Shown here piece by piece: positions 1,057-29,634 of a stretch of 64,000 nucleotides of DNA (positions are counted from its first letter, which is position 1; each line of letters begins with the position of its first letter). Made by a program: the position numbers and the translations under genes. The stretch covers positions 1,404,950 to 1,468,949 of the forward strand of contig CAWEDP010000002.1 of NCBI GenBank assembly GCA_963807925.1, given 5' to 3'. Source of the stretch: an uncultured Acidobacteriota bacterium (lineage in GTDB: Bacteria; Acidobacteriota; Vicinamibacteria; Vicinamibacterales; CAVVIG01). Below the pieces are notes generated by a model. The model was given only the letters and a program-made list of their open reading frames with translations. It had not been told where the DNA came from and did not search any database.

Positions 1057-1215
1057 GCGAAGGGCCGAACGGCAAGGGACGTACCGGCGACTCGCGCCGA
1101 CCCGCAGCCGAGGGCAGCCCCTTTTCCTCAGGTTTTCGAGGGCTCCCCGGGCGTGATCGGCCCGACCGTCGCGTCGGCGGCGTGAATATTCCACAATCGG
1201 CGGGGATATTTCACG

Positions 1216-1231
1216 AGGTCCGAGGTTTGCA
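1216..1231 (+). promoter_or_regulatory. Candidate sigma-54 promoter for the APH-AAA gene
   Basis: AGGTCCGAGGTTTGCA = GG-N10-GC with TTGCA; preceded by a near-perfect inverted repeat CGTGAATATTCC…GGATATTTCACG at 1181-1215. Confidence 0.4.
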
Positions 1232-1251
1232 TGCTGAGCCGCGCACGGCCC

Positions 1252-2856
1252 ATGGGCGTCGAGATGCTGCAGGACGACCAGACCCGCCTCATCGAGGCGC
1301 TTCGGAACGCTGCGCTGTACGGCGCATCCGAGGTTCGCCTCCTCGAAACCCATATCTCGTACGTACTGTTGACCGGCGACTACGCCTTCAAGATCAAGAA
1401 GGCGATCCGCCTCAACTTCCTGGACTTCAGCACCCTCGAGGCGCGCCGATTCTACTGCGTTCGCGAGCTCGAACTGAACCGCAGGTTCGCGCCGCACCTG
1501 TACCTGCAAGTGGTGCCGATTACCGGGACGGCGGACCGTCCCGAGATTGCGGGGTCCGGTCCGCCGATCGAGTACGCCGTCAAGATGCGGCAGTTCCCGC
1601 AGGACGCGCTGCTCGGGGCCATGCTCGCCCGCGGCGCGCTCACGCACGCCCACCTCGATGACCTGGCCGCGCGGCTGTCGTCGTTTCACGACCTGGCGGA
1701 GCGGATTGACCCGGCAGTCCCGTTCGGCACCGCCGCCGCCGTCCGCGCGCTGGCGATGGAGAACTTCACCGACATCGACGCGCTGCTCGGAGACGCCGAC
1801 GACCGCACCGACCTCGCCGCACTCTGCGCCTGGACCGACTGGGAGCACCACGCCCTGGGCCCGGTCTTCGACGGGCGCCGGAACGACGGCTTCGTCCGCG
1901 CCTGCCACGGCGATCTGCATCTCGGCAACATCGCCCTGGTCGAGGGCATCGTGACGATGTTCGACGGCATCGAGTTCAACGAGCGGATGCGCTGGGGCGA
2001 CGTGATGGCCGACGTGGCGTTTCTCGTGATGGATCTGCGCTACCGCACGCGTCCGGACTTTGCCGCGCGGCTCTTCAACCTGTACGTCGAAAGCACCGGC
2101 GATTACGCCGGAGTACGCGTGTTTCGCTTCTATGCCGCGTACCGGGCCATGGTTCGCGCCAAGGTGGCCCGCGTCCGCTCAGCCGAGCTCGTGGCCGAAG
2201 ACCTCCGCGCCGGCGCCGACGCCGAGTACCGCGCGCACGTTCGACTCGCCCTGGACTACACCGAGACGCCTCACGCCGGGCTCATCCTCACGCACGGGCC
2301 GTCGGGGGCCGGCAAGACGACCTTGTCGGAGGGCCTCCTGGAGCTGATTGGCGCCGTCAGGATCCGCACCGACGTGGAACGCAAGCGGCTGCACGGCGTG
2401 CCGTCGCTGGCGGCGAGCCAGTCCGCGCTCGACGCCGGGCTCTATTCGCACCGCGAAACCGAGCGGACCTACGAACGGGCCCGGTCCCTGACGCGCGATG
2501 TCGTGGCGGGTGGCTTTCCGGCCATCGTCGACGGCACCTTCCTCAAGCGCTGGCAGCGCGAGATGTTTCGGCAGCTCGCCTCGGAGCTGGCTGTGCCGTT
2601 CGTCATCGTGGACTTCGTGGCCGCGCCCGCCACCATGCGCGCCAGGATCGAGGAGCGGCGCCGGGCGGCATCGGACGCGTCGGAAGCCGACGCACGGGTG
2701 CTGGAAAGCCAGCTGCAGTCGGCTGAGGCGTTTGGCGAGGATGAAGGACCGGCGGTGGTGACTTATGACGCGGCGACCGCGCCCGAGGGCGCGCGGCAGG
2801 CGGCCGTCTGGCAGCCGGTGGTCGCGCGGCTCGGACGAAGGCCCTCGGCAGCGTAG
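1252..2856 (+). CDS. Bifunctional aminoglycoside-phosphotransferase-like / AAA_33 P-loop protein (Rv2004c-like)
   Basis: ETHISYV, KIKK, CHGDLHLGNI, FDGIEFN kinase motifs, then GPSGAGKT and RIRTDVERKRL; start 1252 or 1264. Confidence 0.9.
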   Translation: MGVEMLQDDQTRLIEALRNAALYGASEVRLLETHISYVLLTGDYAFKIKKAIRLNFLDFSTLEARRFYCVRELELNRRFAPHLYLQVVPITGTADRPEIAGSGPPIEYAVKMRQFPQDALLGAMLARGALTHAHLDDLAARLSSFHDLAERIDPAVPFGTAAAVRALAMENFTDIDALLGDADDRTDLAALCAWTDWEHHALGPVFDGRRNDGFVRACHGDLHLGNIALVEGIVTMFDGIEFNERMRWGDVMADVAFLVMDLRYRTRPDFAARLFNLYVESTGDYAGVRVFRFYAAYRAMVRAKVARVRSAELVAEDLRAGADAEYRAHVRLALDYTETPHAGLILTHGPSGAGKTTLSEGLLELIGAVRIRTDVERKRLHGVPSLAASQSALDAGLYSHRETERTYERARSLTRDVVAGGFPAIVDGTFLKRWQREMFRQLASELAVPFVIVDFVAAPATMRARIEERRRAASDASEADARVLESQLQSAEAFGEDEGPAVVTYDAATAPEGARQAAVWQPVVARLGRRPSAA

Positions 2857-2874
2857 CCGGACACGGCCGGCACG

Positions 2875-3322
2875 TTACGCGACTTTCACTTCGATCGTCT
2901 TCGGCTTCGCGAGCGCGATTTTCGGCAGGTGGACGTGAAGCACGCCCTCCTTGAATTCGGCCTGCACCTTGGTGGCATCCACCTCGACCGGCAGCGCGAA
3001 CCGACGGACGAACTTGCCGTACGACCGTTCCACCTTGTGGAATTTCCTGTCCTTCTCGTCCTTCTCGAACTTCCGCTCCCCTTCGATGGTCAGCGCGCCT
3101 TCACGCACTTCCACCTTGACGTCTTCCTTCTTCAGCTCCGGCAGGTCGGCCTTGATCAGAGTACTCCGTCTCTGTTTCCTCGATGTCGACCGCCGGCGCC
3201 CAGTCGCCGAACAGCACCGGTTCCTCGTCGCCGAATCGGCGTGGAAACTCGGCAAACAGTCGATCCAGGCGGGTGTGAATGTCCTGGAATTCCCGGAACG
3301 GATTCCAACGAACGAGAGTCAT
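2875..3322 (-). CDS. Small heat shock protein Hsp20/alpha-crystallin (one +1 frameshift near 3160)
   Basis: MTLVRWNPFRE…WAPAVDIEET in one frame, LIKADLPELKKEDV…ERSYGKFVRRFALP…GVLHVHLPK in the next; span is 3n+1; GGAGG RBS. Confidence 0.9.
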
Positions 3323-3390
3323 GGAACCTCCTTCCCGCGGGTGCGGCGCCGCCGGAAACCCGGCGGATTGACCGGCCCCGAGAAGGAACG

Positions 3391-3406
3391 TGCAACGACG
3401 CTGCCC
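3391..3406 (-). promoter_or_regulatory. Candidate sigma-54 promoter for hsp20
   Basis: GGGCAGCGTCGTTGCA (GG-N10-GC); palindrome GCCGGAAACCCGGC at 3351-3364 lies in the leader. Confidence 0.6.
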
Positions 3407-3420
3407 GGGGTTGCCCGGGG

Positions 3421-4881
3421 TCAGGACGAGACGGCCTGTGCGGGAAACCGCAGCGACACGACGGTGCCGCCGGAGGGCGGACACTCGAGGTCGATGGAGC
3501 CGCCCAGCGCCTCGACCAGCCGCTTCGCCGTCGACAGCCCGAGGCCGGTGCCCCGCGCCTTGGTCGTGAAGAACGGGGTGAACAGGCGGTCACGGACTTC
3601 GGGCGGGATGCCGGGGCCTTCGTCGGCGACGAGAATGCGCCAGCCGTCGCCGTCGACGTGGGTCGAGATGCGAATGGTGCCCTGGCCATCCATGGCATGC
3701 GACGCGTTGATCAACAGGTTCTGCAGGACGATCTTGAGCAGCTCGGGATCGGCCGGCACCGGCGGAATCGTCCCCGACAGCTCGACGTGAAGACCGGCCG
3801 TCGACGGGTCCTGGCACACCAGGTGCGTCACCGTCTCGACGAGCGCCACGACGTTCACATGCGCGATCTTCGGCTGCGGCGGGCGCGCGAAGAGCAGCAT
3901 GTCCTTCATCAGCTCGTTCAGCGCGTCGAGCCGGGCGACGATTTCCCTGGCAATCGCCGCGTCCTTGCCGCCCGGAGGCAGCCTGGTCCCGATCACCTGA
4001 ATCGCCCCCCGAATTCCCGTGAGCGGATTCTTGACTTCGTGCGCCACGACGGCCGCCATCTCGCCCAGCTTGGTGAGCGCCGACTGTTCGCGCAGGCGTT
4101 CCTCCATCGCCACCCGCGCCGTGAGGTCGTGCAGGATGCCGGTGAACTTCCGCTCCCCTTCGATCAGCATCTCGCCGACCGCGAGATGCACCGGGAACGT
4201 GCTGCCATCCTTCCGGAGGCCCGTCACCTCACGCCCGATGCCGATGATGCGCTGCTGGCCGGTCTCGAGATAGCGCTGCAGATACGCGTCGTGCTCTTCG
4301 TGGTACGGCGACGGCATCAGCATCCTGACGTTCCGGCCGACGACCTCCGCCGCGGCGTACCCGAACAGGCGCTCCGCAGCCGGATTGAGCGCCTGGACGA
4401 TCCCGCGCTGGTCGATCACGATGATGCCGTCGACAGCCGACTCGATGACCGAGCGCCAGTGCGCCTCGCTCGATTTGAGCGCGCGCTCCACTCGCTTCTG
4501 CTCGGTGACGTCGCGCACGGTCGCCGAGGCGCCGACAATGCGCCCCTCGCCGTCGCGCAGCGGCCTGAGGCTGACCGACACGTCGATGAGGCGGCCCTCC
4601 TTCGTGCGGCGCACGGTCTGCTGATGCTGAATCCGCTCTCCCGCCTTGATGCGCGGCGGCGTGCGGACGAGCTCGTCGCGCCGATCGTCGGGAATGAGAA
4701 TGCCGATGGATTGGCCGACGATTTCGGCCGCCGAGTAGCCGTACATTTCCTCGGCGCCCCGGTTCCAGGTGAGGATCACTCCTTCCAGATCGGTCGCGAA
4801 GATCGCGTCGTCTGAGGAGTCGACAACGGCCGCAAGCAGGGAACGGGCGTCTCCTTCGGGCCGCTGGCTCGAGTTGGGCAC
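3421..4881 (-). CDS. PAS-PAS sensor histidine kinase with FixL-like heme PAS domain
   Basis: Second PAS LMPSPYHEEHDAYLQRY…RIIGIGREVTGLRKDGSTFPVHLAVGEM matches FixL; HisKA AHEVKNPL; HATPase NLLINA, DEGPGI, FFTTK, GTGLGL; GTG start 6 nt after a TACGAT -10. Confidence 0.9.
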   Translation of the reverse strand: MPNSSQRPEGDARSLLAAVVDSSDDAIFATDLEGVILTWNRGAEEMYGYSAAEIVGQSIGILIPDDRRDELVRTPPRIKAGERIQHQQTVRRTKEGRLIDVSVSLRPLRDGEGRIVGASATVRDVTEQKRVERALKSSEAHWRSVIESAVDGIIVIDQRGIVQALNPAAERLFGYAAAEVVGRNVRMLMPSPYHEEHDAYLQRYLETGQQRIIGIGREVTGLRKDGSTFPVHLAVGEMLIEGERKFTGILHDLTARVAMEERLREQSALTKLGEMAAVVAHEVKNPLTGIRGAIQVIGTRLPPGGKDAAIAREIVARLDALNELMKDMLLFARPPQPKIAHVNVVALVETVTHLVCQDPSTAGLHVELSGTIPPVPADPELLKIVLQNLLINASHAMDGQGTIRISTHVDGDGWRILVADEGPGIPPEVRDRLFTPFFTTKARGTGLGLSTAKRLVEALGGSIDLECPPSGGTVVSLRFPAQAVSS

Positions 4882-4951
4882 GGCAGGATCGTACACCGGG
4901 ACGGCGCCGATCGACCCGCGACCGTCCCGGTCCGAAGGCGAACGTGGAGTC

Positions 4952-5155
4952 CTAACGAGCCAGCACGTAGGCGTTCTTGGCCGTTCGGGAGAGGAACCGC
5001 GCGTCGACGAGCGCGTCGAGCAGCGCATCGCAGAGGTGCTCGTCAAGGCTCCAGAGGCGTCGCACCTGCGACCTGGTGAGATGCAGGCCGGGAATCTCGA
5101 GATACTCCGCCTGAATCAGATCGAGCCATTCGACGACGCTGCGGTCGTTGATCAT
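4952..5155 (-). CDS. Small hypothetical protein, probable winged-helix fold (67 aa)
   Basis: IQAEYLEIPGLHLTRSQVRRLWSLD…LLDALVDARFLSRT; GAGGA RBS; sigma-54 site upstream. Confidence 0.75.
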   Translation of the reverse strand: MINDRSVVEWLDLIQAEYLEIPGLHLTRSQVRRLWSLDEHLCDALLDALVDARFLSRTAKNAYVLAR

Positions 5156-5187: not shown

Positions 5188-5203
5188 GGCAAGCGGCGTA
5201 CCG
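5188..5203 (-). promoter_or_regulatory. Candidate sigma-54 promoter
   Basis: CGGTACGCCGCTTGCC (GG-N10-GC). Confidence 0.6.
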
Positions 5204-5371
5204 GGACGACCTCGCGGATCCGCGTCGGGTTTCGGAGGAATCCTCGCGGTACCCGCGCGGTCGAGATCCACGCCCGAGCGAAAGTCCCCGCGCGGCGCGG
5301 AATATCCCGCGCTCGTCCAGAGGGCAGGGCCGCTCGGCGAATCCGCAGACCGAGTCGAAGGAGAGGCGGGC

Positions 5372-5452
5372 GCCGGTTTTCCGGCGCGTCCTGGCCAATC
5401 ACGACGTTTCCTGCCCGCGGCCACGCGCACGGTGGTTGGCATCGTCGGTGCG
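5372..5452 (+). promoter_or_regulatory. Palindromic enhancer plus sigma-54 promoter for the cus operon
   Basis: GCCGGTTTTCCGGC (5372-5385), then 52 nt, then GG of TGGCATCGTCGGTGCG (5437-5452). Confidence 0.55.
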
Positions 5453-5465: not shown

Positions 5466-5816
5466 ATGGCCTTTTGGATTCGACGTCGGGCGGCCGCGGT
5501 GCTGACGGCTGCGTTGATGATGGCGAGCGGGTTGGGGGCCGTTCCCGCCGCGCGCCATGAGGCGTGCGCCCTGAACCAGCATCATTGCGGCGCGACCGCT
5601 ACGTCTGTCCGGTGCTGTTGCGGTCCAGAAAACGACGGCACCCGGTCCAACGGCCTCATCGAGGTGCGATCCAGTCTCTCCGCCGACGCGTCGCCCTGCT
5701 GGCTTCCGCGCCAGGGAACCGGAACACCACCTCTTCTCCACTGCCTCTATGCGCGACCCGGCGGTTGGGATCGGCTGCCGGCTGCCGCCGATTCTCCGCC
5801 TGTCCTCCGCATCTGA
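5466..5816 (+). CDS. Cys/His-rich small exported protein upstream of heavy-metal RND operon
   Basis: Signal-like N-terminus, HEAC…HHC…CCC cluster, C-terminal PPVLRI; position typical of metal-efflux leader ORFs. Confidence 0.55.
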   Translation: MAFWIRRRAAAVLTAALMMASGLGAVPAARHEACALNQHHCGATATSVRCCCGPENDGTRSNGLIEVRSSLSADASPCWLPRQGTGTPPLLHCLYARPGGWDRLPAAADSPPVLRI

Positions 5817-5964
5817 TCCCCATCCGGACATAGTGCATACGTCGGACTGAGCCGCCATCGGCGACTCGGATGCCGACGAGGCCACCACCAATCACAGGCT
5901 GGTGCGGATTGGAAATCGCCGCCTGACAGGCGGGCGATGGACGACCGCCAGGGAGCAGACACGT

Positions 5965-7221
5965 ATGCGGGGCCGAGCTTTTTTCACGATGCTGGGATTG
6001 GTCACGGCGGCGGCTGGCGTTGCGGCCCAGACCGACGGGCGGTTCACGCTGGCGGGTGCGATCGCTGAAGCGCTCGCGCGCAATCCGGAAATCGCCGCCG
6101 CGGACCGCCGCTACGATGCGGCGCTCACACGTCCGGCCCAGGAGCGCAGCCTGCCCGATCCGATGATCTCGGCCGGATACCGTTCGAGCGGAACGCCCCT
6201 GCCCGGGGCGGGCCTGGGCGTCGAGCCGACGGCGAACATCGGCGTCATGCTCACGCAGGAGATTCCCTTCCCGGGGAAGCTCGTCCTGCGCGGCACCATC
6301 GCCGCCCGCGAGGCGGCCGCCGGGCAGGAAGAGGTGGAGGCGGCACGGCTCGGCATCGCCGCACGCGTGAAGCAGACCTACTTCCGTCTGGCATACACCT
6401 ACGCGGCCGGCGACGTGCTGGCGCGGAACCGGGCGCTGCTCGAAACGCTGCTCAAAGCCAGCGAGGCGCGGTACAGCGTCGGCCATGCCGCGCAGCAGGA
6501 CGTTTTTCGCGCTCAGACACAGGTGACCGTCCTCGAGCTGCGGCAGGTCCGCCTCGCGCAGGAGCAGGCGGTGAGAACCGGCGAGCTGAACGCGCTCATG
6601 GGTCGGGCGGCGACCGACCAGCTCGCGCGGCCGGACGACCTGTCGCTCGCGCCGTTCGACCGCCCGCTGGAGTCGCTGGTCGCGCTGGCCGTCGATCGCG
6701 CGCCGGAGCTGCGACGCGACCGGATCGTCATCGATCGCGCGAACATCGCCGTCGACGCGGCGCGGCTGGACTTCAAGCCGGACTTCGCCGTCTCGGGCGG
6801 CTACGCGTACATGGGCGCCATGCCCTCGATGTACGAATTCCGCTTCGACGTCAGGGTCCCGCTTCGACAGCAGCGCCGAGCGGCGGCCGTCGCCGAGCGC
6901 CAGCGCCTGGTCGACGCGGCCCGGCACGCCTACGACGCCAGCCGTCTCTCGATCGAAGCGCGGATGCGGGAGGACTACGAGACCGCCATGACGTCGGCGC
7001 GCCTGGCCCGCCTCTATCGCGACACGCTGCTCGCGCAGACCCGACTCGGACTGGAGTCATCGATGGTCGGCTATCAGACCGGACAGGTCGATTTCCTGAC
7101 GGTGCTGACCAATTTCGGGTCGGTGCTCGAGAACGAGATGACCTATTTCGACGAGGTCGCGTCGTTCCGGGTGGCCATCAGCCGGCTGGAAGAGGTCACC
7201 GGCACGACGCTTCTGGACTGA
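5965..7221 (+). CDS. TolC/CusC-family outer membrane efflux protein
   Basis: Signal peptide, LPDPM, QEIPFPGK, YQTGQVDFLTVL motifs; in an operon with adaptor and RND pump. Confidence 0.9.
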   Translation: MRGRAFFTMLGLVTAAAGVAAQTDGRFTLAGAIAEALARNPEIAAADRRYDAALTRPAQERSLPDPMISAGYRSSGTPLPGAGLGVEPTANIGVMLTQEIPFPGKLVLRGTIAAREAAAGQEEVEAARLGIAARVKQTYFRLAYTYAAGDVLARNRALLETLLKASEARYSVGHAAQQDVFRAQTQVTVLELRQVRLAQEQAVRTGELNALMGRAATDQLARPDDLSLAPFDRPLESLVALAVDRAPELRRDRIVIDRANIAVDAARLDFKPDFAVSGGYAYMGAMPSMYEFRFDVRVPLRQQRRAAAVAERQRLVDAARHAYDASRLSIEARMREDYETAMTSARLARLYRDTLLAQTRLGLESSMVGYQTGQVDFLTVLTNFGSVLENEMTYFDEVASFRVAISRLEEVTGTTLLD

Positions 7222-7228
7222 GGACGCG

Positions 7229-8578
7229 ATGAGAACCCTGAAACGACTCGTCCTGCTGCTGCTCGTCGGCGGCGCTGCCTTCACGAGCGGCTACGCGCTC
7301 CGCGCCATCAAGGGCGCCGGCGCGCCACCCGCGCGCAAGGTGCTGTACTACGTCGATCCGATGCACCCGGCGTACAAGTCCGACAAACCGGGGATTGCGC
7401 CCGATTGCGGAATGGCGCTCGAGCCGGTCTACGCCGACCCGCAGCCGACGGCCCGCGCCGCCGACGACGGTCGGACGCCGGCGGGGGCGATTCACGTTCC
7501 CATCGAACGGCAGCAGCTCATCGGCGTGAAGTTCACGCGGGTGGAAGTCGACAGCAGCTCACGCGCCATCCGCACGGTGGGGACGGTCGCGGCCGACGAG
7601 TCTCGGATCGTACGGGTGCATCCGCGGTTCGACGGATGGATCGAGAAGGTGTTCGTCGACTTCACCGGCGCGCTCGTCACGCAGGGCCAGCCGATGCTGA
7701 CCATCTACAGTCCGGAAATGCTCGCGTCCCAGCAGGAACTGCTGCTCGCCAGCCGCGCCCGTGCGCTCATGCGCGACAATCCGCTTGCGTCGGCCGCCGA
7801 GCACGGCGAGTCGCTCTTCGAGGCGGCCAGGCACCGCCTCTCGCTCTGGCAATTGAGCGCCGCCGACATCGACCGGGTGCTCGAGTCCGGGCAGCCGATC
7901 GCCAGCGTCGCCGTCGCGGCCCCGGCCGCTGGATTCGTCACCGAGCGCAACGCGTTTCCCAACCAACGCGTCACAGGCGATACCGATCTCTACACGATCA
8001 CCGATCTCGGTCGAATCTGGATCATGGCCGACGCGTTCGAGTCCGACGTGGCCGCGATCAAGATAGGCAGCCTCGCGTACGTCTCGTTCCCGAACGGCAG
8101 CGCGCCGCCGCTGGGCGCGAGGGTCGCCTACATTCAGCCGCAGCTCGACCCGGCGACGCGCACGATGAAGGTTCGGCTCGAAGCCGCCAATCCGGGCTTT
8201 CGGATGAAGCCCGACATGTTCGTCAACGTCGAATTCGGCGTGGCCGGCGCCCCGCGGCTGGTCGTGCCGGCCGACGCGGTGCTCGACACGGGCGACCGGA
8301 AGACCGTCTTCGTCGACCTCGGCGGCGGGTATCTCGAGCCGCGCGAGGTCGAGATCGGCGACCGGATCGGCGATCGGCTCGTCGTCGAGCGCGGGCTCGA
8401 GGCCGGCGAGCGCGTGGTCTCGTCCGGCACGTTCCTCATCGATTCCGAGAGCCAGCTGAGGGCGGCGGCGGCCGGCATGGGCGCCCCGCCCGACCGGCCG
8501 CCCCAGGACGGCGGGACGGCCGCATCCGCGACGGCGGCGCCCCGCACTCCGACCCCGGGGGAGCCTCGCCATGATTGA
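7229..8578 (+). CDS. cusB: CusB-like RND periplasmic adaptor with N-terminal heavy-metal-binding domain
   Basis: YYVDPMHP…DKPGIAPDCGMAL; GWIEKV, YSPEM, TRTMKVR, GTFLIDSES. Confidence 0.9.
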   Translation: MRTLKRLVLLLLVGGAAFTSGYALRAIKGAGAPPARKVLYYVDPMHPAYKSDKPGIAPDCGMALEPVYADPQPTARAADDGRTPAGAIHVPIERQQLIGVKFTRVEVDSSSRAIRTVGTVAADESRIVRVHPRFDGWIEKVFVDFTGALVTQGQPMLTIYSPEMLASQQELLLASRARALMRDNPLASAAEHGESLFEAARHRLSLWQLSAADIDRVLESGQPIASVAVAAPAAGFVTERNAFPNQRVTGDTDLYTITDLGRIWIMADAFESDVAAIKIGSLAYVSFPNGSAPPLGARVAYIQPQLDPATRTMKVRLEAANPGFRMKPDMFVNVEFGVAGAPRLVVPADAVLDTGDRKTVFVDLGGGYLEPREVEIGDRIGDRLVVERGLEAGERVVSSGTFLIDSESQLRAAAAGMGAPPDRPPQDGGTAASATAAPRTPTPGEPRHD

Positions 8579-21238: not shown

Positions 21239-21312
21239 AACCGTTCCGCACGCGGTGGTTGCGGACGCGTCCCCCACCGCGGTGCGCCTCCAGGATCTGA
21301 ACCGGTCCACGT

Positions 21313-21599: not shown

Positions 21600-21621
21600 A
21601 TCACGAATCGGCACAGCGGAC

Positions 21622-21728: not shown

Positions 21729-22217
21729 ATGATCGATCTCAAGCGCATCCTCGTCCCCACGGACTTCAGCGAGACTTCGGCTGCCGCACTGCGGTACGCG
21801 ATCGAGCTCTCGCGGCGGTTCCACGCGCATCTCTGTCTGCTGAACGTGCCCGATCATCCCGGCGAGGCCGCCGAGGCCGAGTACCCGATCGGACTGTTCG
21901 AGACGATGCAGAACGCCGCCCACGATCGGCTCCGGTCGCTCTTGACGCCGCGGGAGGCCGCGGACCTCAATCCGGAATGCGCGATGCGGATCGGACATGC
22001 CGCCGACGAGATCGTGCGCTATGCGCAGGAGCATGCCATCGACCTGATCGTCATGGGCACCCACGGACGCGAAGGGATGTCGCGCGTCCTGCTGGGCAGC
22101 GTGGCCGAAAAAGTAGTGCGCCGCGCAGGCTGTCCCGTGCTGACGGTCCACTGCCCCGGGCACGCGTACGTTCCGGTCACCGATGCGGCCCTCGCGAAGG
22201 CCGGCGCCGCGGCATAG
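21729..22217 (+). CDS. Universal stress protein (single domain)
   Basis: ILVPTDFS…DLIVMGTHGREG…GSVAEKVVRRAGCPVLTV; AGGAGG RBS. Confidence 0.93.
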   Translation: MIDLKRILVPTDFSETSAAALRYAIELSRRFHAHLCLLNVPDHPGEAAEAEYPIGLFETMQNAAHDRLRSLLTPREAADLNPECAMRIGHAADEIVRYAQEHAIDLIVMGTHGREGMSRVLLGSVAEKVVRRAGCPVLTVHCPGHAYVPVTDAALAKAGAAA

Positions 22218-23090: not shown

Positions 23091-26000
23091 GTGAAGGCGC
23101 GTGCGGTCGTCGTGGACGGAAACGATGCGTGTTCGTCGGTCGCCTATCAGCTGAGCGACGCCATCGCCATCTACCCCATCACCCCGTCGTCGAGCATGGC
23201 CGAGAACGCCGATGCCTGGGCCAGCGCCGGCCGGCCGAATCTGTGGGGCGCGACGCCGACCGTCGTCGAGATGCAGAGCGAGGCCGGCGCGGCCGGTACG
23301 GTCCACGGCGTCCTGCAGGCGGGCGCCCTGGCGACGACCTTCACGGCCAGCCAGGGCCTCCTCCTGATGATCCCGAACATGTTCAAGATCGCCGGCGAGC
23401 TCACGCCCGCGGTCTTTCACGTCGCCGCGCGGGCCGTGGCCACGCACGCGCTCTCGATCTTCGGCGACCACAGCGACGTGATGGCCGTGCGCACGACCGG
23501 TTTCGCGATGCTGGCGTCGGCCTCGGTGCAGGAGGCGCAGGACCTGGCGGTCGTCGCGCACCGGGCGACGCTCGAATCGCGCGTGCCGTTCCTGCATTTT
23601 TTCGACGGCTTCCGCACGTCGCACGAACTGGCGAAGATCGCCACGGTGGACGAGGCGGCGCTGAAAGGGATGATCGACAACGGGCTGATCGAGGCGCACC
23701 GGCGGCGTGCGCTCACGCCGGATCACCCGGTGCTCCGCGGCACGGCGCAGAACCCGGACGTGTTCTTCCAGAACCGCGAGGCGCCCAACCGCTATTACGA
23801 TCGGACGCCCGCGACGGTGCAACGCGCCATGGATCGCTTCGCGGAGCTCACGGGCCGTTCCTATCAGCTCTTCGATTACCACGGCGCGCCGGATGCCGAG
23901 CGCGTCGTCGTGATCATGGGGTCGGGCGGGGAAACCGTCGCCGCCACGGTGGACGCACTCGGCGCCGCGGCGCGAGTCGGCGTCCTCGTGGTCCGGCTGT
24001 ACCGGCCGTTCGCTGCCGACGTGTTCGTCGACGCGCTGCCGCCGACCGTGCAGGCGATCGCGGTGCTCGACCGTACCAAGGAGCCGGGCGCGGTTGGCGA
24101 GCCGCTGTTTCAGGACGTCACCGCCGCGGTGGCCGAAGCGTTCGTGCGCGGCCGGACGCCGTTCCTGCGGATGCCGCGCGCCATCGGCGGCCGGTACGGA
24201 CTGGGATCGAAGGAATTCTCCCCCGCCATGGCCAAGGCGGTGTTCGACGAACTGGCGCGTCCTGCGCCCCGATCGCGCTTCACGGTCGGCATTCTCGACG
24301 ACGTGACGCGCCTGTCGCTCCCGGTCGACGACGGCTTCGACATCGAGTCGCCGGACACGGTCCGGGCGGTCTTCTTCGGGCTCGGGTCCGACGGCACCGT
24401 GGGCGCCAACAAGAACTCGGTGAAGATCATCGGCGACGACGCCGGGCGGTGGGCGCAGGGCTACTTCGTGTACGACTCGAAGAAATCCGGCGCGGTGACC
24501 GTTTCGCACCTGCGGTTCGGCCGCCAGCCGATCCACGCCCCGTACCTCGTGTCGCGCGCCTCGTTCGTCGGTTGCCATCAGTTCGGCCTGCTGCAGCGCG
24601 ACGATGTGCTGGACGCGGCTGACACCGGCGCCACGCTGCTCCTGAACGCGCCGGGATCGCCCGACGCCGTGTGGGACATGCTGCCGTTCGAAATCCAGCA
24701 GCAGATCGTCGCGAAACGGCTGCGGCTGTTCGTCATCGATGCCTACGCCGTCGCCCAGTCCGCCGGGCTCGGATCGCGCATCAACACGATCATGCAGACC
24801 TGCTTCTTCGCGATCTCCGGCCTGTTCCCGCGCGAGGACGCGGTCGCGCGCATCAAGGCGGCCATCGAGAAGACGTACGGGCGCCGCGGCCCGGAGGTCG
24901 TCCGGCGGAACTTCGAGGCGGTCGACCGAGCGCTCGCCCACCTCCATGAGGTGGCTGTGCCCGCGTTCCCGACCGCCTCGCGGCACCGCCGATCGTTCGA
25001 CGCCGCCGACGCGCCGGACTTCGTGCGGCGGGTGACGAGCCTGATGCTCGCGGGCCACGGCGACCGGCTGCCGGTGAGCGCGCTGCCGGCCGACGGTACC
25101 TGGCCCACCGGCACCGCGCGGTGGGAAAAGCGCACCATCGCCCTCGACATCCCCGTCTGGGACGAGTTGCTGTGCATCCAGTGCAACAAGTGCGCGCTGG
25201 TCTGCCCCCACGCGGCCATCCGCGTCACCGTCGTCGACCCGGCCCGCGTCGCGGCGGCGCCGCCGACCTACAGGCACGTGCCGTACAAGGGCACCGAACT
25301 GCGGGGGGAGTACACCGTGCAGGTCGCGCCGGAAGACTGCACCGGCTGCATGCTGTGCGTGATGGTGTGCCCGGCGAAGGACAAGATCGCCAGGGACCGC
25401 AAGGCGCTGGCGATGGCGCCCGCGGCGCCGCTTCGGGACGCCGAACGGGAGAATTATGGGTTCTTCCTGAGCCTGCCTCCGGTGGACCGCGCCGCCACCC
25501 GCAGCGACGTCAAAGGAACGCAGTTCCTGCAGCCGCTCTTCGAGTACTCCGGCGCGTGCGCCGGCTGCGGCGAGACGCCGTACGTGAAGCTCCTGACCCA
25601 GCTGTTCGGGGACCGTGCGGTCATCGCGAATGCGACCGGCTGCTCGTCGATCTACGGCGGGAACCTGCCGACCACGCCGTTCACCACCAATCGCGACGGC
25701 CGCGGGCCCGCCTGGGCGAACTCGCTGTTCGAGGACAACGCGGAGTTCGGACTCGGCCTGCGCCTCGGTCTGGACCGCCACGAGGCGCGCGCGCGGGCGC
25801 TGGTGGAGGCGCTGGCGCCGCTACTCCCGCCCGGGACGGCCGAAGAGTTGCTCACGGCGCCGCAGGCGGGCGAGTCGGCGATCAAGGCGCAACGCGAGCG
25901 CGTCACGGCGCTGCGCGGCGCGCTGGCCCCGCTGCAGGGTGGCGAGCGCGACGCCGAGGTCCACGACCTGCTCGCGCTCGCCGATTACCTGGTGAGGAAG

Positions 26001-26639
26001 AGCGTCTGGATCGTCGGCGGCGACGGGTGGGCGTACGACATCGGCTACGGCGGCCTCGACCACGTGCTGGCCAGCGGCGCCAACGTGAACGTCCTCGTGC
26101 TGGATACGGAGGTGTATTCGAACACCGGCGGTCAGCAGTCGAAAGCGACGCCAATCGCCGCGTCGGCGAAATTCGCCGCCGCCGGCAAGCGGATGGCGAA
26201 GAAGGATCTCGGCCTGATGGCCATGTCGTACGGCCACGTGTACGTGGCGCAGGTGGCGCTCGGCGCGAAAGACGCGCAGACGCTGAAGGCGTTCCAGGAG
26301 GCCGAGGCGTATCCGGGGCCGTCGCTGATCATCGCGTACAGCCACTGCATCGCTCACGGCTACGAGATGGCCGACGGCCTGGAACACCAGCGGCTGGCGG
26401 TCGACACCGGATACTGGCCGCTCTACCGGTTCGATCCCCGGCGCGACGCCCAGAACGCCCCGCCGCTGGTGCTCGATTCGGCGGCGCCGAAAACGGACGT
26501 TTCGAAGCTGCTCGCCGTCGAAGGGCGTTTTCAACCGGCGGAGGGACCGGACGGCGGCGCGCTGCTCGATCGGGCGCGCCTGCAGATCACCCGACGGCTG
26601 GCGCTCTATCGCGAGCTCGCCGGTCGGGCGGCACGATAG
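23091..26639 (+). CDS. nifJ: Pyruvate:ferredoxin (flavodoxin) oxidoreductase, homodimeric
   Basis: YPITPSS, EMQSEAGAAG, HFFDGFRTSHE, CIQCNKCALVCP and CTGCMLCVMVCP ferredoxin domain, ACAGCGE, GGDGWAYDIG TPP motif. Confidence 0.96.
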   Translation: MKARAVVVDGNDACSSVAYQLSDAIAIYPITPSSSMAENADAWASAGRPNLWGATPTVVEMQSEAGAAGTVHGVLQAGALATTFTASQGLLLMIPNMFKIAGELTPAVFHVAARAVATHALSIFGDHSDVMAVRTTGFAMLASASVQEAQDLAVVAHRATLESRVPFLHFFDGFRTSHELAKIATVDEAALKGMIDNGLIEAHRRRALTPDHPVLRGTAQNPDVFFQNREAPNRYYDRTPATVQRAMDRFAELTGRSYQLFDYHGAPDAERVVVIMGSGGETVAATVDALGAAARVGVLVVRLYRPFAADVFVDALPPTVQAIAVLDRTKEPGAVGEPLFQDVTAAVAEAFVRGRTPFLRMPRAIGGRYGLGSKEFSPAMAKAVFDELARPAPRSRFTVGILDDVTRLSLPVDDGFDIESPDTVRAVFFGLGSDGTVGANKNSVKIIGDDAGRWAQGYFVYDSKKSGAVTVSHLRFGRQPIHAPYLVSRASFVGCHQFGLLQRDDVLDAADTGATLLLNAPGSPDAVWDMLPFEIQQQIVAKRLRLFVIDAYAVAQSAGLGSRINTIMQTCFFAISGLFPREDAVARIKAAIEKTYGRRGPEVVRRNFEAVDRALAHLHEVAVPAFPTASRHRRSFDAADAPDFVRRVTSLMLAGHGDRLPVSALPADGTWPTGTARWEKRTIALDIPVWDELLCIQCNKCALVCPHAAIRVTVVDPARVAAAPPTYRHVPYKGTELRGEYTVQVAPEDCTGCMLCVMVCPAKDKIARDRKALAMAPAAPLRDAERENYGFFLSLPPVDRAATRSDVKGTQFLQPLFEYSGACAGCGETPYVKLLTQLFGDRAVIANATGCSSIYGGNLPTTPFTTNRDGRGPAWANSLFEDNAEFGLGLRLGLDRHEARARALVEALAPLLPPGTAEELLTAPQAGESAIKAQRERVTALRGALAPLQGGERDAEVHDLLALADYLVRKSVWIVGGDGWAYDIGYGGLDHVLASGANVNVLVLDTEVYSNTGGQQSKATPIAASAKFAAAGKRMAKKDLGLMAMSYGHVYVAQVALGAKDAQTLKAFQEAEAYPGPSLIIAYSHCIAHGYEMADGLEHQRLAVDTGYWPLYRFDPRRDAQNAPPLVLDSAAPKTDVSKLLAVEGRFQPAEGPDGGALLDRARLQITRRLALYRELAGRAAR

Positions 26640-26649
26640 AGGAAGTCCC

Positions 26650-27592
26650 ATGGATCTCGCCACCACCTACCTGGGCCTGGACCTGCCCCACCCGCTGATG
26701 GTGGGGGCGTCGCCGCTCGATGAGGATCTCGCGATGGCGGCGCGCCTCGAAGACGCCGGGGCGGCCGCCCTGGTCATGCACTCGCTGTTCGAGGAGGAGA
26801 TCGAGACATACGGCGGGGCGCCCGATCGGTACCTGGAACACCTGCTCCGGCTCAAACGGCGGGTCGCCCTGCCAGTCATCGCGTCGCTGAACGGCACGAC
26901 GGCCGAGGGGTGGCTGCAGTACGCCCGGCTGATCGAGCGGGCGGGCGCCAGCGCCCTCGAGCTGAACTTCTATCATGTCGCCACCGACCTGCTCGAAGAC
27001 GGACACACCGTCGAACGCCGGGTGGTGGACATCGTCGCGGTTCTCAAGGAGTCGATCCGGATCCCGCTGGCGGTGAAGCTGTCGCCGTTCTATTCGGCCC
27101 TTCCGTATCTGGCCGCCGAGCTCGAACGGATCGGGGCCGACGGCCTGGTCCTCTTCAACCGTTTCTATCAGCCCGACATCGATCCCGATCGGCGCGAAAC
27201 GACCACGCGGCTGCAGGACCTCGACGTCGGCGGAGCTCCTGCTGCGGCTGCACTGGATCGCGATTCTGGCGGGGCGCATCCGCGCGTCGCTGGCGCTGAG
27301 CGGCGGCGTCCACGAGCCGATCGATGCCGTCAAGGGCGTCATGGCGGGGGCCGACGTCGTGCAGGTGGTCTCGGCGCTGATGAAGGACGGCCCCGGACGC
27401 CTGACCGAGCTGCGGGACGGACTGTCCGCCTGGGGCGACCGCCACGGGTACGGCGCGATCGGTGCGATGCGCGGCTGCACGACTCTCGTGCGGGCCGCCA
27501 GCCCGCAGCGCCTCGAACGGCTGAACTATCTGGCGACGCTCCGCTCGAGCCCCGAGACGCTGATTCCCGCTTCTATCGGAGGCACGTCGTGA
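26650..27592 (+). CDS. Dihydroorotate dehydrogenase-like flavoprotein (one +1 frameshift near 27217)
   Basis: YLGLDLPHPLMVGASP, SLFEE, ALELNFY, VKLSPF, LFNRFYQPDID, then shifted frame TSAELLLRLHWIAIL…SGGVH…MAGADVVQVVSALM; span is 3n+1. Confidence 0.88.
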
Positions 27593-27594
27593 TC

Positions 27595-28065
27595 ATGTTG
27601 AAGCGCATCCTGGTCGCCACCGATTTCGGTCTGCAATCCGACAACGCGCTGCAGTACGGACGCGCGCTCGCCCGCACCTTCGGCGCGGCGCTCCATCTGC
27701 TGCACGTCCGCGAGAATTCGTTCTTGAAGGCGACGCCCGCCGACCCCGAGACGCTGCGGGCGGCGACGCTTCGGATTCTGGACCAGCGACTCACCGCCGA
27801 CGATCGTCAGCGCGGCGGGCACGCCGTGCTCGAGACCTCGGATCGGCCCGCCGAGGCGATCGTCCACTACGCCGCCGAGCACCGCATCGACCTGATCATC
27901 ATGGGCACTCATGGACGCGAGGGCTTCGCGCACCTGCTGATGGGCAGCGTTGCCGAGACCGTCGTCCGATCCGCGCCCTGCCCCGTGCTCATCGTCAGGC
28001 ACCCCGAACACGACTTCGTGCATCCCGACACCGCGGTGGGGAGCGCCGCCAGCGGGGTCCGCTAG
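27595..28065 (+). CDS. Universal stress protein (single domain)
   Basis: ILVATDF…DLIIMGTHGREG…GSVAETVVRSAPCPVLIV. Confidence 0.92.
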   Translation: MLKRILVATDFGLQSDNALQYGRALARTFGAALHLLHVRENSFLKATPADPETLRAATLRILDQRLTADDRQRGGHAVLETSDRPAEAIVHYAAEHRIDLIIMGTHGREGFAHLLMGSVAETVVRSAPCPVLIVRHPEHDFVHPDTAVGSAASGVR

Positions 28066-28126
28066 CGCGGCCGCCTCACGGCACCGCGCGCTCCGGGGCT
28101 CGGCAGGGACCCGAACACGCTCGCGG

Positions 28127-28206
28127 GCCGGAAATCCGGCGACAAGACGACGCGACGGCCGCCGCGGTGCTTTTGCGGCGCTGCCCGCCGTGGCACCTCA
28201 CTTGCG
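28127..28206 (+). promoter_or_regulatory. Palindromic enhancer plus sigma-54 promoter for BON-csp-cytochrome operon
   Basis: GCCGGAAATCCGGC (28127-28140), then 51 nt, then GG of TGGCACCTCACTTGCG; related TGGCGGAATTCCGTCA at 28232-28247. Confidence 0.75.
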
Positions 28207-28271
28207 CCACTTCCATCAGGAGCGTGCGAGGTGGCGGAATTCCGTCACCGCACGCGGACGCGGGTGGCGCC

Positions 28272-28925
28272 ATGAAAATCGACCGAGAGATTCAACAGCA
28301 TGTGATCGGCGCTCTCGGGCGCGACCCCGGGCTCGACGCCGCGAGGATTGGCGTGTCGGTGACCGACTGCGTCGTCACGCTGCAGGGCACCGTCACCACG
28401 CTGCGACAGAAGTGGCTCGCCGAGCGCGCCGCCCGGCGCATCGCGCTCGTTCGGGCCGTCGCAAACGACGTCGAAGTCGAACCGGACGAGCACCGGAGCC
28501 GCTCCGACACGGCAATCGCCGGGGCGGCGGCGACGGCACTCGAGTGGGACAGCGCCGTCCCGGACGACAACGTGAAGGCCACGGTGCGGCACGGCTGGGT
28601 GACGCTGACCGGCAACGTCACGTGGCCGTACCAGAAGACGGCAGCCGAGCACGCGGTCGATCGTCTCAACGGCGTGAAAGGCGTGGCCAACTCCATCGTG
28701 GTGGCGCCGAGCGCGAACACGGCCGACGTGAAGGCCGAAATCGAGGCGGCCTTCAGGCGCAGCGCCGAACTCGACGCGCGGCAAATCGCCGTGGACGCGC
28801 ACGGCGGGACCGTCATTCTGACCGGCACGGTGCGATCGCTGCACGAACGGGACGAAGCCGAGCAGGCGGCACGAACGGCTCCGGGCGTCACCAGGGTCGA
28901 CGACCGCCTCGAAGTCGCGCCCTGA
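28272..28925 (+). CDS. Triple BON domain protein (OsmY-like, no signal peptide)
   Basis: Three repeats of VTLxGxV…AE.AA…GV..V.N/D. Confidence 0.9.
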   Translation: MKIDREIQQHVIGALGRDPGLDAARIGVSVTDCVVTLQGTVTTLRQKWLAERAARRIALVRAVANDVEVEPDEHRSRSDTAIAGAAATALEWDSAVPDDNVKATVRHGWVTLTGNVTWPYQKTAAEHAVDRLNGVKGVANSIVVAPSANTADVKAEIEAAFRRSAELDARQIAVDAHGGTVILTGTVRSLHERDEAEQAARTAPGVTRVDDRLEVAP

Positions 28926-28965
28926 GGCGGCGGGAAGAGCTTCACGGAGATCCGGGGAGGAGGTC

Positions 28966-29166
28966 ATGACCGGTAAGGTCAAGAAGCTCACCAGGAATCG
29001 GGCGTTCGGCTTTATCCGGGGTGACAACGGTGTGGACTACTTCTTTCACCGTACGGATCTCGGCGGCACGGTGACGCTCGAACAGCTCGACGAAGGGCAG
29101 CGCGTCACCTTCGAGGTCACCGAGCGCGGCAGGGGTCCGCGTGCGACGCACATCAGCACGAGCTGA
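28966..29166 (+). CDS. Cold shock domain protein
   Basis: GKVK…FGFI…DYFFHRT…GQRVTFEV…GPRA; GGAGGAGG RBS. Confidence 0.92.
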   Translation: MTGKVKKLTRNRAFGFIRGDNGVDYFFHRTDLGGTVTLEQLDEGQRVTFEVTERGRGPRATHISTS

Positions 29167-29226
29167 CCCTCCGCCGCGTCCCGATCCGGGCCGGGACAAC
29201 CGACCCGACACATCTGGAGCAGGGGT

Positions 29227-29634
29227 ATGCGCACATTCTCGAAACTCACGACCGTTCTGGCCCTGGCGGGGGCGCTGAGCGTCACGGCGAGCGCGGATCA
29301 GACGCTTTCGCTGCGGCGCGTCATGCGCGAAAAGCTGGAGCACTCGCAGCTCATGCTCGAGGCCGTCGTCACCAGCGACTGGGCGGCGCTCGAGCAGCAC
29401 ACGCGCGCGCTGCGCGCGCTGACCGACGACCCCGGATGGGCCGTCCTGAAGACGCCCGAGTACGCGCGGCACACGATGGCGTTCGTCACGGCGACCGAGG
29501 ATCTGCTCGACGCGGCGCGGGCCCACGAGCTCGATGCGACACCGCTCGCCTACGTGTCACTGACGCTGTCGTGCGTCCAGTGCCATCGGTACGTCGCACG
29601 GGCGCGCATCGCGCAGGCGCAGCCGGACCGGTAA
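29227..29634 (+). CDS. Cytochrome c'-like four-helix-bundle protein
   Basis: Signal peptide, MREKL near N-terminus, single C-terminal CxxCH (CVQCH). Confidence 0.8.
   Translation: MRTFSKLTTVLALAGALSVTASADQTLSLRRVMREKLEHSQLMLEAVVTSDWAALEQHTRALRALTDDPGWAVLKTPEYARHTMAFVTATEDLLDAARAHELDATPLAYVSLTLSCVQCHRYVARARIAQAQPDR

Follow-up and report, generated by a model that had tools for sequence, protein, structure and literature searches.

The window analysed here, a stretch of DNA of 64 kb, is C2:1404950–1468949 of G000, the genome of an uncultured soil bacterium of the Vicinamibacterales (Acidobacteriota; 4.78 Mb, 68% G+C, 4 contigs, 96% complete). It covers the right-hand 29 kb, one-third, of an island of ~88 kb (C2:1.345–1.434 Mb) in which good copies of a 16-bp palindrome, with the consensus TGCCGG-W4-CCGGCA, are clustered. 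About ten operons for stress proteins and anaerobic metabolism use this one predicted docking site, and the palindrome is very likely the activator site of a shared sigma-54 regulon. The sigma-54 elements and palindromes of the window are listed below; elements were scored with a position weight matrix (PWM) trained on 39 promoters outside the island. USP stands for universal stress protein, PFOR for pyruvate:ferredoxin oxidoreductase and ORF for open reading frame.

1216–1231, + strand: proposed sigma-54 element AGGTCCGAGGTTTGCA before the APH+AAA_33 gene; PWM 4.6, a score reached at about 1 in 1000 positions
3350–3365: palindrome CGCCGGAAACCCGGCG of the downstream class, in the 5' leader of Hsp20, 25 nt past its sigma-54 element
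3391–3406, − strand: sigma-54 element GGGCAGCGTCGTTGCA before Hsp20; PWM 8.2
5188–5203, − strand: weak sigma-54 element CGGTACGCCGCTTGCC before a 67-aa ORF and the histidine kinase; PWM 5.9
5371–5386: palindrome CGCCGGTTTTCCGGCG; gap to the GG of the 5437 promoter, 51 nt
5437–5452, + strand: sigma-54 element TGGCATCGTCGGTGCG before the Cys/His-rich protein and the efflux operon; PWM 10.6
15499–15514, − strand: sigma-54 element CGGCACGCCCTTTGCC before a tandem USP; PWM 8.3
15564–15579: palindrome TGACGGAAATCTGGCG; gap to the GG of the 15499 promoter, 50 nt
15698–15713: palindrome TGCCGTGATCCCGGCG; gap to the GG of the 15754 promoter, 41 nt
15754–15769, + strand: sigma-54 element AGGCACGGCTCTCGCT before the outer-membrane beta-barrel gene; PWM 8.0
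19023–19038, − strand: sigma-54 element CGGCCGACGAATTGCA before the YbaK-like/DUF308/tandem-USP operon; PWM 7.3
19089–19104: palindrome TGCCGCTTTCCCGGCA; gap to the GG of the 19023 promoter, 51 nt
20095–20110, − strand: weak sigma-54 element CGGCATGGCGCATGCG before a 52-aa ORF and the multihaem cytochrome; PWM 5.1
20140–20155: palindrome CGCCGGAAATCCGGCA; gap to the 20095 promoter, 30 nt; to the non-canonical element at 20196, 41 nt
20196–20211, + strand: possible sigma-54 element CGGAGCGCGTCTTGTA, with a non-canonical −12, before cytochrome c; PWM 2.5; tentative
21562–21577, − strand: sigma-54 element GGGCACTGCTCTTGCC before three small proteins; PWM 8.5
21585–21600: palindrome CGACGGATTTCCGGCA; gap to the 21562 promoter, 8 nt; to the 21688 promoter, 88 nt
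21622–21637: perfect palindrome TGCCGGGAATCCGGCA; gap to the 21688 promoter, 51 nt; to the 21562 promoter, 45 nt
21688–21703, + strand: sigma-54 element TGGCATCGGTGTTGCC before USP, TonB_C, PFOR and DHOD-like+USP; PWM 15.4
28126–28141: palindrome GGCCGGAAATCCGGCG; gap to the GG of the 28191 promoter, 50 nt
28191–28206, + strand: consensus sigma-54 element TGGCACCTCACTTGCG before BON; 0 mismatches; PWM 16.0
28232–28247: variant palindrome TGGCGGAATTCCGTCA of the downstream class, 25 nt past the 28191 element

A preliminary description of this DNA listed 11 sigma-54 elements. Eight of them score 7.3–16.0, those at 28191, 21688 and 5437 being strong and those at 21562, 15499, 3391, 15754 and 19023 moderate. 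The elements at 5188, 20095 and 1216 are weak. The nearest palindrome to the 5188 promoter lies 168 nt upstream of it; the 1216 element overlaps the ATG, has no palindrome and is not supported as a member, and the Rv2004c-like gene at 1231, which had been placed in the regulon, has no credible promoter–palindrome pair. The count of TGGCAC-N5-TTGC in the window (34 with two or fewer mismatches, shuffle mean 50.8) is lower than in shuffles and so is no evidence by itself. Genome-wide, the elements that are intergenic number 9/9 at a score of 7, 36/63 at 6, 170/730 at 5 and 668/5502 at 4. The genome encodes rpoN (a 508-aa open frame has the one PF04552 match, at E 4.1e-65), in keeping with the reading of these elements as sigma-54-type promoters.

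The nine palindromes of the preliminary description were all recovered and all are intergenic. GCCGG-N4-CCGGC is exact at five positions in the window (3351, 5372, 20141, 21623 and 28127), and the copies at 15565, 15699, 19090 and 21586 are degenerate, with one or two mismatches. Dinucleotide shuffles of the window contain a mean of 1.08 exact copies and a maximum of 4, and none of 100 shuffles reaches 5. As had been described, the housekeeping half (30–64 kb) contains neither palindrome nor pairing; none is present past 28.3 kb. The excess of the motif over background is real for one form of it and slight for another. In the genome as a whole, copies with an A/T spacer (GCCGG[AGT]WW[ACT]CCGGC) are intergenic in 9/13 cases, and CCGG-W4-CCGG in 10/18 as against 19/132 for the form with a G/C spacer, whereas the bare pattern with any spacer is hardly enriched (26/151 intergenic, with 12.6% of bases intergenic). 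When copies are ranked by 16-mer score, the intergenic share is 4/4 for perfect copies, 7/19 at 11/12, 32/166 at 10/12 and 132/1157 at 9/12.

Gaps of 52, 51, 52, 52, 51, 42 and 31 nt between palindrome and promoter, given in the preliminary description from the 14-mer, are all reproduced; from the 16-mer, as used here, they are 51, 50, 51, 51, 50, 41 and 30. Intergenic palindromes scoring at least 9/12 were paired with elements of PWM 5 or more within 130 nt. The 22 such palindromes of the island give 20 outward sigma-54 elements and only 3 inward, whereas 153 palindrome-like intergenic sites in the rest of the genome give 30 outward and 29 inward. Eight of the 20 island gaps are of 50–51 nt, four of 40–41 and two of 29–30, three are of 8, 10 and 12 nt, and the remainder are of 45, 65, 88, 95 and 113 nt. 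In G000 alone, the phasing has an R of 0.57 at a period of 10.5 nt, a value that 2.5% of 3000 random sets reach.

The same arrangement was followed in 80 loci (907 kb; loci of relatives are here numbered L###) from metagenome-assembled genomes (MAGs) labelled Vicinamibacterales or Acidobacteriota, which are the surroundings of orthologs of one activator. These contain 168 palindromes, a density ~4.7 times that of the G000 genome, with 151 outward and 37 inward sigma-54 pairs. Gap peaks are found at 8–11, 29, 40–41, 50–53, 61–63, 72–74, 83 and 94–95 nt. The best period is 10.7 nt (R 0.51, 97 pairs; 0/2000 random sets reach this R), or 11.1 nt when the proximal class is left out (66 pairs, R 0.51; 0/2000), figures that overstate the phasing and are not true probabilities, because orthologous promoters in related MAGs are not independent. 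The separate peaks come from different genes: gaps are of 50–52 and 61 nt before USPs, 53, 72–73 and 97 before multihaem cytochromes, 78 before PFOR, 10–11 or 29 before Nfu and 8 before an 80-aa protein. A count of perfect 5-N-5 inverted repeats that favoured no motif, made upstream of 242 promoters, has GCCGG-N4-CCGGC at the top (26 upstream and 1 in the downstream control). The sites thus lie on one helical face relative to the −24/−12 element.

Site centres fall near −43, −62, −73, −84, −95 and beyond, with a few near +23; the commonest, −84, is found before USP genes. The usual range of sigma-54 upstream activator sites has −84 at its near end, so the contention that this enhancer sits closer than is typical does not hold for sites centred there; what is unusual is the placement at about −43 and +23, and sites there may act negatively. 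The copy at 3351 is downstream of the Hsp20 promoter, in the 5' leader. A fixed offset of 25–26 nt after the promoter 16-mer is seen in 6/13 downstream cases, among them 3350–3365 and 28232–28247 in the window, C2:1399385 in G000, and L098, L161 and L162. The 28232 copy is 106 nt (~10 turns), centre to centre, from the copy at 28126.

Some elements in the island have a good −24 with GT or TC at −12. Two of them have a perfect −24: one is at C2:1362815, with a gap of 50 nt, before a USP gene, and a TGGTAC element lies 51 nt to the right of the palindrome at C2:1345195, a non-GC −12 at the canonical distance. The occurrence of non-GC −12 promoters at the canonical 50, 51 and 41 nt (the last being the weak, tentative element at 20196 in the window) hints at a relaxed −12 requirement in this regulon.

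Comparison with 60 relatives, whose genomes are numbered G###, reveals that the palindrome–promoter arrangement is kept before orthologous genes in other Vicinamibacterales genera. The pattern CCGGNWWNCCGG-N50-54-GGC-N8-TGC is matched in other genera of the family before genes for USPs (L040, L041, L044 and L050), Hsp20 (L060), cytochrome c (L037) and 2-oxoacid:ferredoxin oxidoreductase (L045 and L064); chance matches in coding DNA were also returned. A mis-spaced control, with N9 in place of N8 inside the sigma-54 element, matched 24/61 genomes, and the matches inspected resembled coding DNA. When GCCGGNWWNCCGGC alone was used as the search pattern it proved too loose, matching 60/61 genomes, many with coding-type spacers. 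Pfam annotation of 61 of the 89 downstream ORFs, most Nfu and activator ORFs having been dropped, identified Usp in 6, multihaem cytochromes in 6, AAA_2 in 3, POR_N in 2 and NifU in 2. A stringent form of the arrangement, CCGGNWWNCCGG-N38-68-TGGCAY-N6-TGC, is present in 15/60 relatives, and a backwards control gave 1 hit in all.

These results make it scarcely credible that the palindromes are chance G+C-rich inverted repeats, or remnants of repeat elements, with no regulatory role. It is true that the any-spacer pattern is common in coding DNA, where 125 of its 151 copies lie, and that a loose pattern matches many genomes by chance. Chance is contradicted by the shuffles, none of which attains the window count, by the intergenic position of the A/T-spacer form, by the outward-to-inward ratios of 20:3 and 151:37 with a periodicity of ~10.7 nt, and by the retention of sites before orthologous genes across genera. 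The shared, helically phased palindromic enhancer of the preliminary description is supported.

The genes of the window in and around this arrangement are as follows. Gene calls come from a simple codon-statistics script and are crude; names are from Pfam.

1231–2856, + strand: APH+AAA_33 (Rv2004c-like) gene (Pfam)
2875–3322, − strand: Hsp20 gene (Pfam HSP20, E 3.7e-25; in two frames by three-frame translation)
3421–5046, − strand: PAS-PAS histidine kinase (Pfam); the start may be at 4896
4952–5155, − strand: 67-aa ORF ahead of the kinase
5466–5790, + strand: small Cys/His-rich secreted protein, from 5466, at the head of the efflux operon
5902–11846, + strand: Cus-like OEP-MFP-RND efflux operon (Pfam OEP, HlyD_D23+HMBD, ACR_tran)
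12243–15459, − strand: operon of tandem USP (14545–15459) and ClpB-like AAA+ (12243–14522) (Pfam)
15841–16422, + strand: outer-membrane beta-barrel gene (Pfam OMP_b-brl)
16482–18984, − strand: probable operon of YbaK-like (frameshifted), DUF308, 77-aa ORF and tandem USP (Pfam)
19119–19865, − strand: multihaem cytochrome (Pfam), with a 52-aa ORF between it and the 20095 promoter
20241–20681, + strand: cytochrome c
20723–21522, − strand: three small proteins (translations)
21729–22217, + strand: USP (Pfam)
22276–23031, + strand: TonB_C (Pfam)
23091–26639, + strand: PFOR (Pfam)
26650–28065, + strand: DHOD-like+USP (Pfam)
28272–28925, + strand: BON (Pfam)
28966–29166, + strand: cold-shock-domain gene (Pfam)
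29227–29634, + strand: weak cytochrome c'-like match (Pfam)

Two of these genes are read in two frames. In Hsp20, a 1-nt frameshift near 3165–3170, within 3160–3175, puts the conserved N-terminal 53 aa one base out of frame, and at 18930–18945 the first 16 aa of the YbaK-like gene are one base out of frame with the remainder. Two single-base shifts within 16 kb suggest assembly indels, not decay. Small proteins resembling the Cys/His-rich protein follow palindrome–sigma-54 pairs in L113, L114, L118, L172 and L176, with gaps of 60–61 and 94–95 nt; this recurrence would place metal efflux under the same control.

In the left-hand part of the island are genes for a [NiFe]-hydrogenase small subunit, HypF and a HycI-type protease; Rieske and cytochrome b subunits, multihaem cytochromes and an MtrB/PioB-like porin; FeoB; a B12 radical-SAM enzyme (TIGR04190); and a USP with an ADP-forming acetyl-CoA synthetase. 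It also contains two sigma-54 activators, here named EBP1 and EBP2. The genome has 31 matches to PF00158, 23 of them at E 3e-30 or better, and two of these 23 are in the island. EBP1 (C2:1360659–1362029) is an NtrC-type regulator with REC, AAA+ and helix-turn-helix (HTH; HTH_8) domains, encoded after a single-domain receiver gene. EBP2 (C2:1359204–1360238, 44 kb to the left of the window) is a sensor-less activator of 344 aa that consists of AAA+ and a Fis-type HTH (HTH_8) only, the Pfam match beginning at the AAA+ domain (residues 6–171). It matches PF00158 (E 2.4e-66), PF25601 and PF02954 (E 1.3e-10) and has the GAFTGA loop. Ahead of the gene are a 74-aa NifU-domain (Nfu-type) gene and a palindrome-bearing sigma-54 promoter.

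EBP2 is the best candidate for the protein that binds the palindrome, and on the distribution of genes and sites we consider this assignment fairly probable. Among the relatives, 26/60 have an EBP2 ortholog, and the stringent arrangement is present in 13 of these 26 related genomes as against 2/34 without one (Fisher p 1.5e-4). In 59/80 of the MAG loci, the 700 nt upstream of EBP2 contain a promoter of at least PWM 8, and a palindrome lies upstream of that promoter in 41/59; gaps there are of 10–11 and 29 nt before Nfu, and of 82–120 nt directly before EBP2 where Nfu is absent. That the sigma-54 promoter of EBP2's own operon carries the palindrome implies positive autoregulation. All 31 orthologs compared have identical residues in the recognition region of the HTH.

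Alternatively, EBP1 could bind the palindrome directly as the partner of the FixL-type kinase described below and run the whole regulon, EBP2 being only one target with another job. EBP1 is a complete REC-AAA+-HTH activator encoded in the island, its kinase is of an oxygen-sensor type and adjoins it in relatives, palindromes flank its operon (C2:1362705 and 1362750), and it would give the simplest one-activator model. The arrangement does not track EBP1, whose orthologs (63–84% identity; paralogs at 50% or less) occur in 40/60 relatives: it is found in 10/40 with and 5/20 without. G042 and G060, which are 97 and 100% complete on ~10 and ~7 contigs, have EBP2 with sites ~4 kb off but no EBP1 ortholog, and the one EBP1-only genome with a stringent hit, G049, has Nfu at a contig end next to EBP1, so that EBP2 has probably been cut off. 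The recognition helices of the two activators also differ. Direct control by EBP1 alone is therefore improbable, though not negligibly so.

A third possibility is that the palindrome is occupied by a protein that is not a sigma-54 activator (a repressor, a CRP/FNR-like co-regulator or an architectural protein, for example) and that modulates promoters dependent on another activator. The 5-N4-5 layout is similar to that of CRP/FNR sites, whose class II and class I positions are like the centres at about −41.5, −62, −73 and −84, and at about −43 and +23 the copies might serve as operators. The genome has just two Crp-type HTH genes, each over 1 Mb away from the island. The sites are phased against −24/−12 elements, which need an AAA+ activator; the palindrome co-occurs with the gene of a sigma-54 activator and is present at the promoter of that same gene; and its outline, TGC...GCA over 16 bp, resembles the sites of the NtrC family. 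We regard such a binder as very improbable.

With EBP2 as the preferred binder, the features of this protein become relevant to the signal. Directly after the GNVRELEN segment, between AAA+ and HTH, is a C-x6-C-x-C-x6-C motif (Cys4) whose cysteines, at 229, 236, 238 and 245, are invariant in 31/31 aligned orthologs. The motif occurs in 73/80 loci, and Nfu is directly upstream of the activator in 50/80. These cysteines are absent from the solved relatives of EBP2 displayed, including the best-matching NifA (9qq6_C, E 6.8e-80). The motif probably holds a metal or Fe-S centre, which would make activity oxygen- or redox-dependent. Against the NCBIfam nifA model EBP2 scores 338.8 bits, below the cut-off of 528.85. 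Prediction of a complex of EBP2 with the Nfu-type protein gave a median of 0.31 (mark 0.32), which speaks neither for nor against an interaction. No longer homologues of 603–2000 aa were found, a range outside which an Nfu–activator fusion of ~420 aa would fall, and 2781 metagenome proteins, all generically named, match the C-terminal part of EBP2.

Two further observations concern the activator genes of relatives. In L091 (G001), a short ORF downstream of the NtrC-type regulator matches only the HTH end of EBP2 (residues 274–337), and G001 has no full EBP2 ortholog. In another lineage, a gene for a ~150-aa protein with its own sigma-54 promoter lies just downstream of the activator, and a CGGCG-N4-CGCCG inverted repeat is located 82–87 nt upstream of that promoter (L133, L138, L140, L142, L146, L149, L151, L152, L155 and L170).

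The PAS-PAS histidine kinase of the window is a putative oxygen sensor. Its second PAS domain matches the haem domains of FixL (1d06, 1dp6 and 8js5; E 1e-36 to 1e-43), with conservation of the stretch around HD-Y, IIGIGR and RKDGSTFP, and is predicted to be a FixL-type haem domain; the HD-Y and IIGIGR segments presumably carry the haem-ligand His and Arg. For the kinase core the best scores are with AtoS and ZraS, kinases that pair with NtrC-type regulators. Full-length orthologs of the kinase abut EBP1 in at least nine loci (L084, L092, L079, L080, L077, L073, L096, L082 and L075). The adjacency and the AtoS/ZraS-like core make it very likely that the FixL-type kinase and EBP1 are a cognate pair, and the position of such a predicted kinase next to an NtrC-type regulator supports oxygen as the signal.

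Low oxygen or redox state is, from the gene content and these domain matches, the probable signal. The low-oxygen programme proposed in the preliminary description is accordingly plausible in view of the FixL-type kinase, PFOR, ADP-forming acetyl-CoA synthetase, hydrogenase, multihaem cytochromes, USPs, Hsp20 and BON. It is DosR-like only by analogy of gene content: no DosR regulator, GAF-haem kinase or DosR box was seen among the annotated genes of the island, where no dedicated search for them was made.

The regulon could also be real and answer to something else: to iron or Fe-S status, to NO or CO, or to energy starvation in general. The Nfu partner and the Cys4 motif could report the supply of Fe-S, FeoB is encoded in the island, haem of the FixL type also binds NO and CO, and USPs, Hsp20, BON and ClpB are general stress proteins. 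PFOR, ADP-forming acetyl-CoA synthetase, the hydrogenase with its maturation proteins, the B12 radical-SAM enzyme and the multihaem cytochromes, on the other hand, are typical of anoxic metabolism, and the haem-PAS domain of the kinase aligns with those of FixL. A signal other than oxygen is on this evidence unlikely, although a real alternative.

The promoter of the Nfu–EBP2 operon carries a second, different palindrome, GGGGAA-N2-TTCCCC. All 9/9 exact copies upstream of promoters are at Nfu/EBP2 promoters, with gaps of 57–76 nt (L103, L106, L108, L120, L123, L126, L130, L137 and L173); in G000 it is at C2:1360615–1360628, with a gap of 74 nt. With two or fewer mismatches it is present at 34/59 Nfu/EBP2 promoters, and a similar site precedes FeoB at C2:1396039. 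This palindrome may be the site of EBP1. The single activator of the preliminary description thus probably gives way to two sigma-54 activators in a cascade. Elsewhere in the window, two direct copies of a GAATATTCCAC-like word, at 1179–1210 just before the Rv2004c-like gene, have a GAATATTCC core in common with the second palindrome.

In the explanation that we propose, TGCCGG-W4-CCGGCA would be the upstream activator site of a sigma-54 regulon that fills the ~88-kb island. The FixL-type haem kinase would signal to EBP1, which is encoded just upstream of the Nfu–EBP2 operon, and EBP1 would turn on this operon at low oxygen, perhaps via GGGGAA-N2-TTCCCC. EBP2 would then bind the 16-bp palindrome, drive the regulon and positively autoregulate, and a metal or Fe-S centre at Cys4 would tie its activity to oxygen or redox state. 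The output would be survival and anaerobic energy metabolism: USPs, Hsp20, BON, the ClpB-like protein and PFOR with ADP-forming acetyl-CoA synthetase, together with hydrogenase, cytochromes, FeoB and the Cus-like efflux pump. Taken as a whole, a phased regulon with a Cys4 binder and a low-oxygen cascade is the best explanation of the predicted features, and we hold it with moderate confidence. The exact order of the cascade, from kinase to EBP1 to Nfu–EBP2 to regulon, is put forward tentatively, with somewhat more doubt than assurance.

Several points weigh against this explanation. Some of the promoters are only moderate PWM matches, and off-phase pairs occur at gaps of 45, 65, 88 and 113 nt. 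Centres at −43 and +23 are odd for an activator that acts by looping, and such sites could be operators. The predicted binder has been assigned by co-occurrence among kin genomes, which are not independent. Half of the genomes with EBP2 (13/26) have no match to the stringent pattern; G018 is motif-positive with neither activator at the thresholds used, and G049, as described above, is motif-positive without EBP2. The Walker B motif of EBP2 has D104–D105 in all 31 orthologs (alignment A2, reference L001:15204-16238:-), where sigma-54 activators usually have D-E, so that EBP2 may be an atypical ATPase. The cysteines of Cys4 might do no more than bind zinc for structure. Lastly, the second palindrome is associated neither with adjacency of EBP1 (13/23 and 21/36) nor with its presence (8/18 and 1/2), and for this reason the cascade step is a conjecture.

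EBP2 is the more novel part of the system, more so than the regulon. A far-reaching version of the proposal would make it a new class of directly oxygen- or redox-sensing sigma-54 activator, with an Fe-S cluster in the linker delivered or held by Nfu, forming a two-tier oxygen switch with the FixL-type kinase and NtrC-type regulator and driving a dormancy-plus-fermentation programme across the Vicinamibacterales from sites as close as −43 and even +23. We offer this as speculation that is rather unlikely to be correct in full.

Vicinamibacteria (Acidobacteriota subdivision 6) are very abundant in soils, and nearly all of their genomes are uncultured MAGs. With a cis-element and a strict spacing rule, the putative low-oxygen regulon of these bacteria, which would bear on their survival in anoxic microsites, can be read from MAGs. 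EBP2, the Nfu-type protein, the FixL-type kinase and the NtrC-type regulator are concrete candidates for biochemistry, the Cys4 activator family is large, and the natural series of site–promoter distances bears on the action of sigma-54 activators at very short range.

Among known systems, close sites for the activators NifA and NtrC work only on the correct helical face, as classic promoter studies established. The present case differs in being a natural series, over many promoters and genera, with a period of ~10.7 nt and centres reaching to about −43 and +23. PspF and other sensor-less activators are like EBP2 in having AAA+ and HTH without an N-terminal regulatory domain and in autoregulation via their own site, which is predicted for EBP2. 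As EBP2 lacks such a domain, its control must come in trans or from the core. PspF differs in being held by PspA and in its negative autoregulation at a sigma-70 promoter; EBP2 has a sigma-54 promoter, a conserved Nfu-type neighbour and four invariant cysteines.

In the rhizobial FixLJ-NifA/FixK system, a haem-PAS kinase senses oxygen and its response regulator turns on the gene for a sigma-54 activator. NifA is itself oxygen-sensitive via cysteines near the AAA+/HTH linker, which gives two tiers of oxygen control. The haem-PAS kinase, the two-tier logic and the cysteine-bearing second activator have predicted counterparts here. FixJ is a LuxR-type response regulator, whereas an NtrC-type REC-AAA+-HTH protein lies beside the kinase in the relatives of G000; NifA has a GAF domain, which EBP2 lacks, and the Cys motif of EBP2 is absent from the matched NifA. 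No nif genes were seen among the annotated genes of the window and island.

DosR of Mycobacterium tuberculosis is of the LuxR/NarL type and acts at sigma-70-type promoters with a different 20-bp palindrome, under sensor kinases with GAF-haem domains. The likeness of DosRST to the present system is by analogy of content only (USPs, Hsp20, a nearby Rv2004c-like gene and haem kinase sensors), and the Rv2004c-like gene here has no palindrome.

The nearest published system is NmpRSTU of Myxococcus xanthus (PMC11841059), which has a set of sigma-54 promoters, an NtrC-like regulator and a haem kinase, with a hypoxia regulon that includes a USP, cbb3 oxidase and HemN. The two systems have in common a soil bacterium, a (here predicted) haem-based kinase, a probable response to oxygen limitation in the present case and the inclusion of the regulator's own operon, as well as inverted-repeat sites within ~100 bp of the promoter (PMC11841059). 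The NmpR site given there, GCGCA-N5-TGCGC in pairs 14–15 bp apart, differs from TGCCGG-W4-CCGGCA, and the sensor is a protoglobin kinase (NmpU) in a phosphorelay, in contrast to the FixL-type PAS kinase predicted here (PMC11841059); protoglobin (PF11563) was not found in the G000 genome, which is 96% complete. In comparison with NmpRSTU as there described, the likely binder here has no receiver and has Cys4 and Nfu, the regulon is much larger and fermentative, and the phylum is another. The view that no such system has been described in Acidobacteriota stands for the phylum, in that a literature search found none for Acidobacteriota or Vicinamibacteria and a term search of the main text of a 2025 survey of sigma-54 regulons returned no mention of Acidobacteria; it does not extend to the type of regulon, since a sigma-54 hypoxia regulon that includes a USP is on record for Myxococcus (PMC11841059). 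The system is thus a variant on known sigma-54 control of the response to hypoxia, as in NmpR and FixLJ-NifA, and is analogous, not homologous, to DosR.

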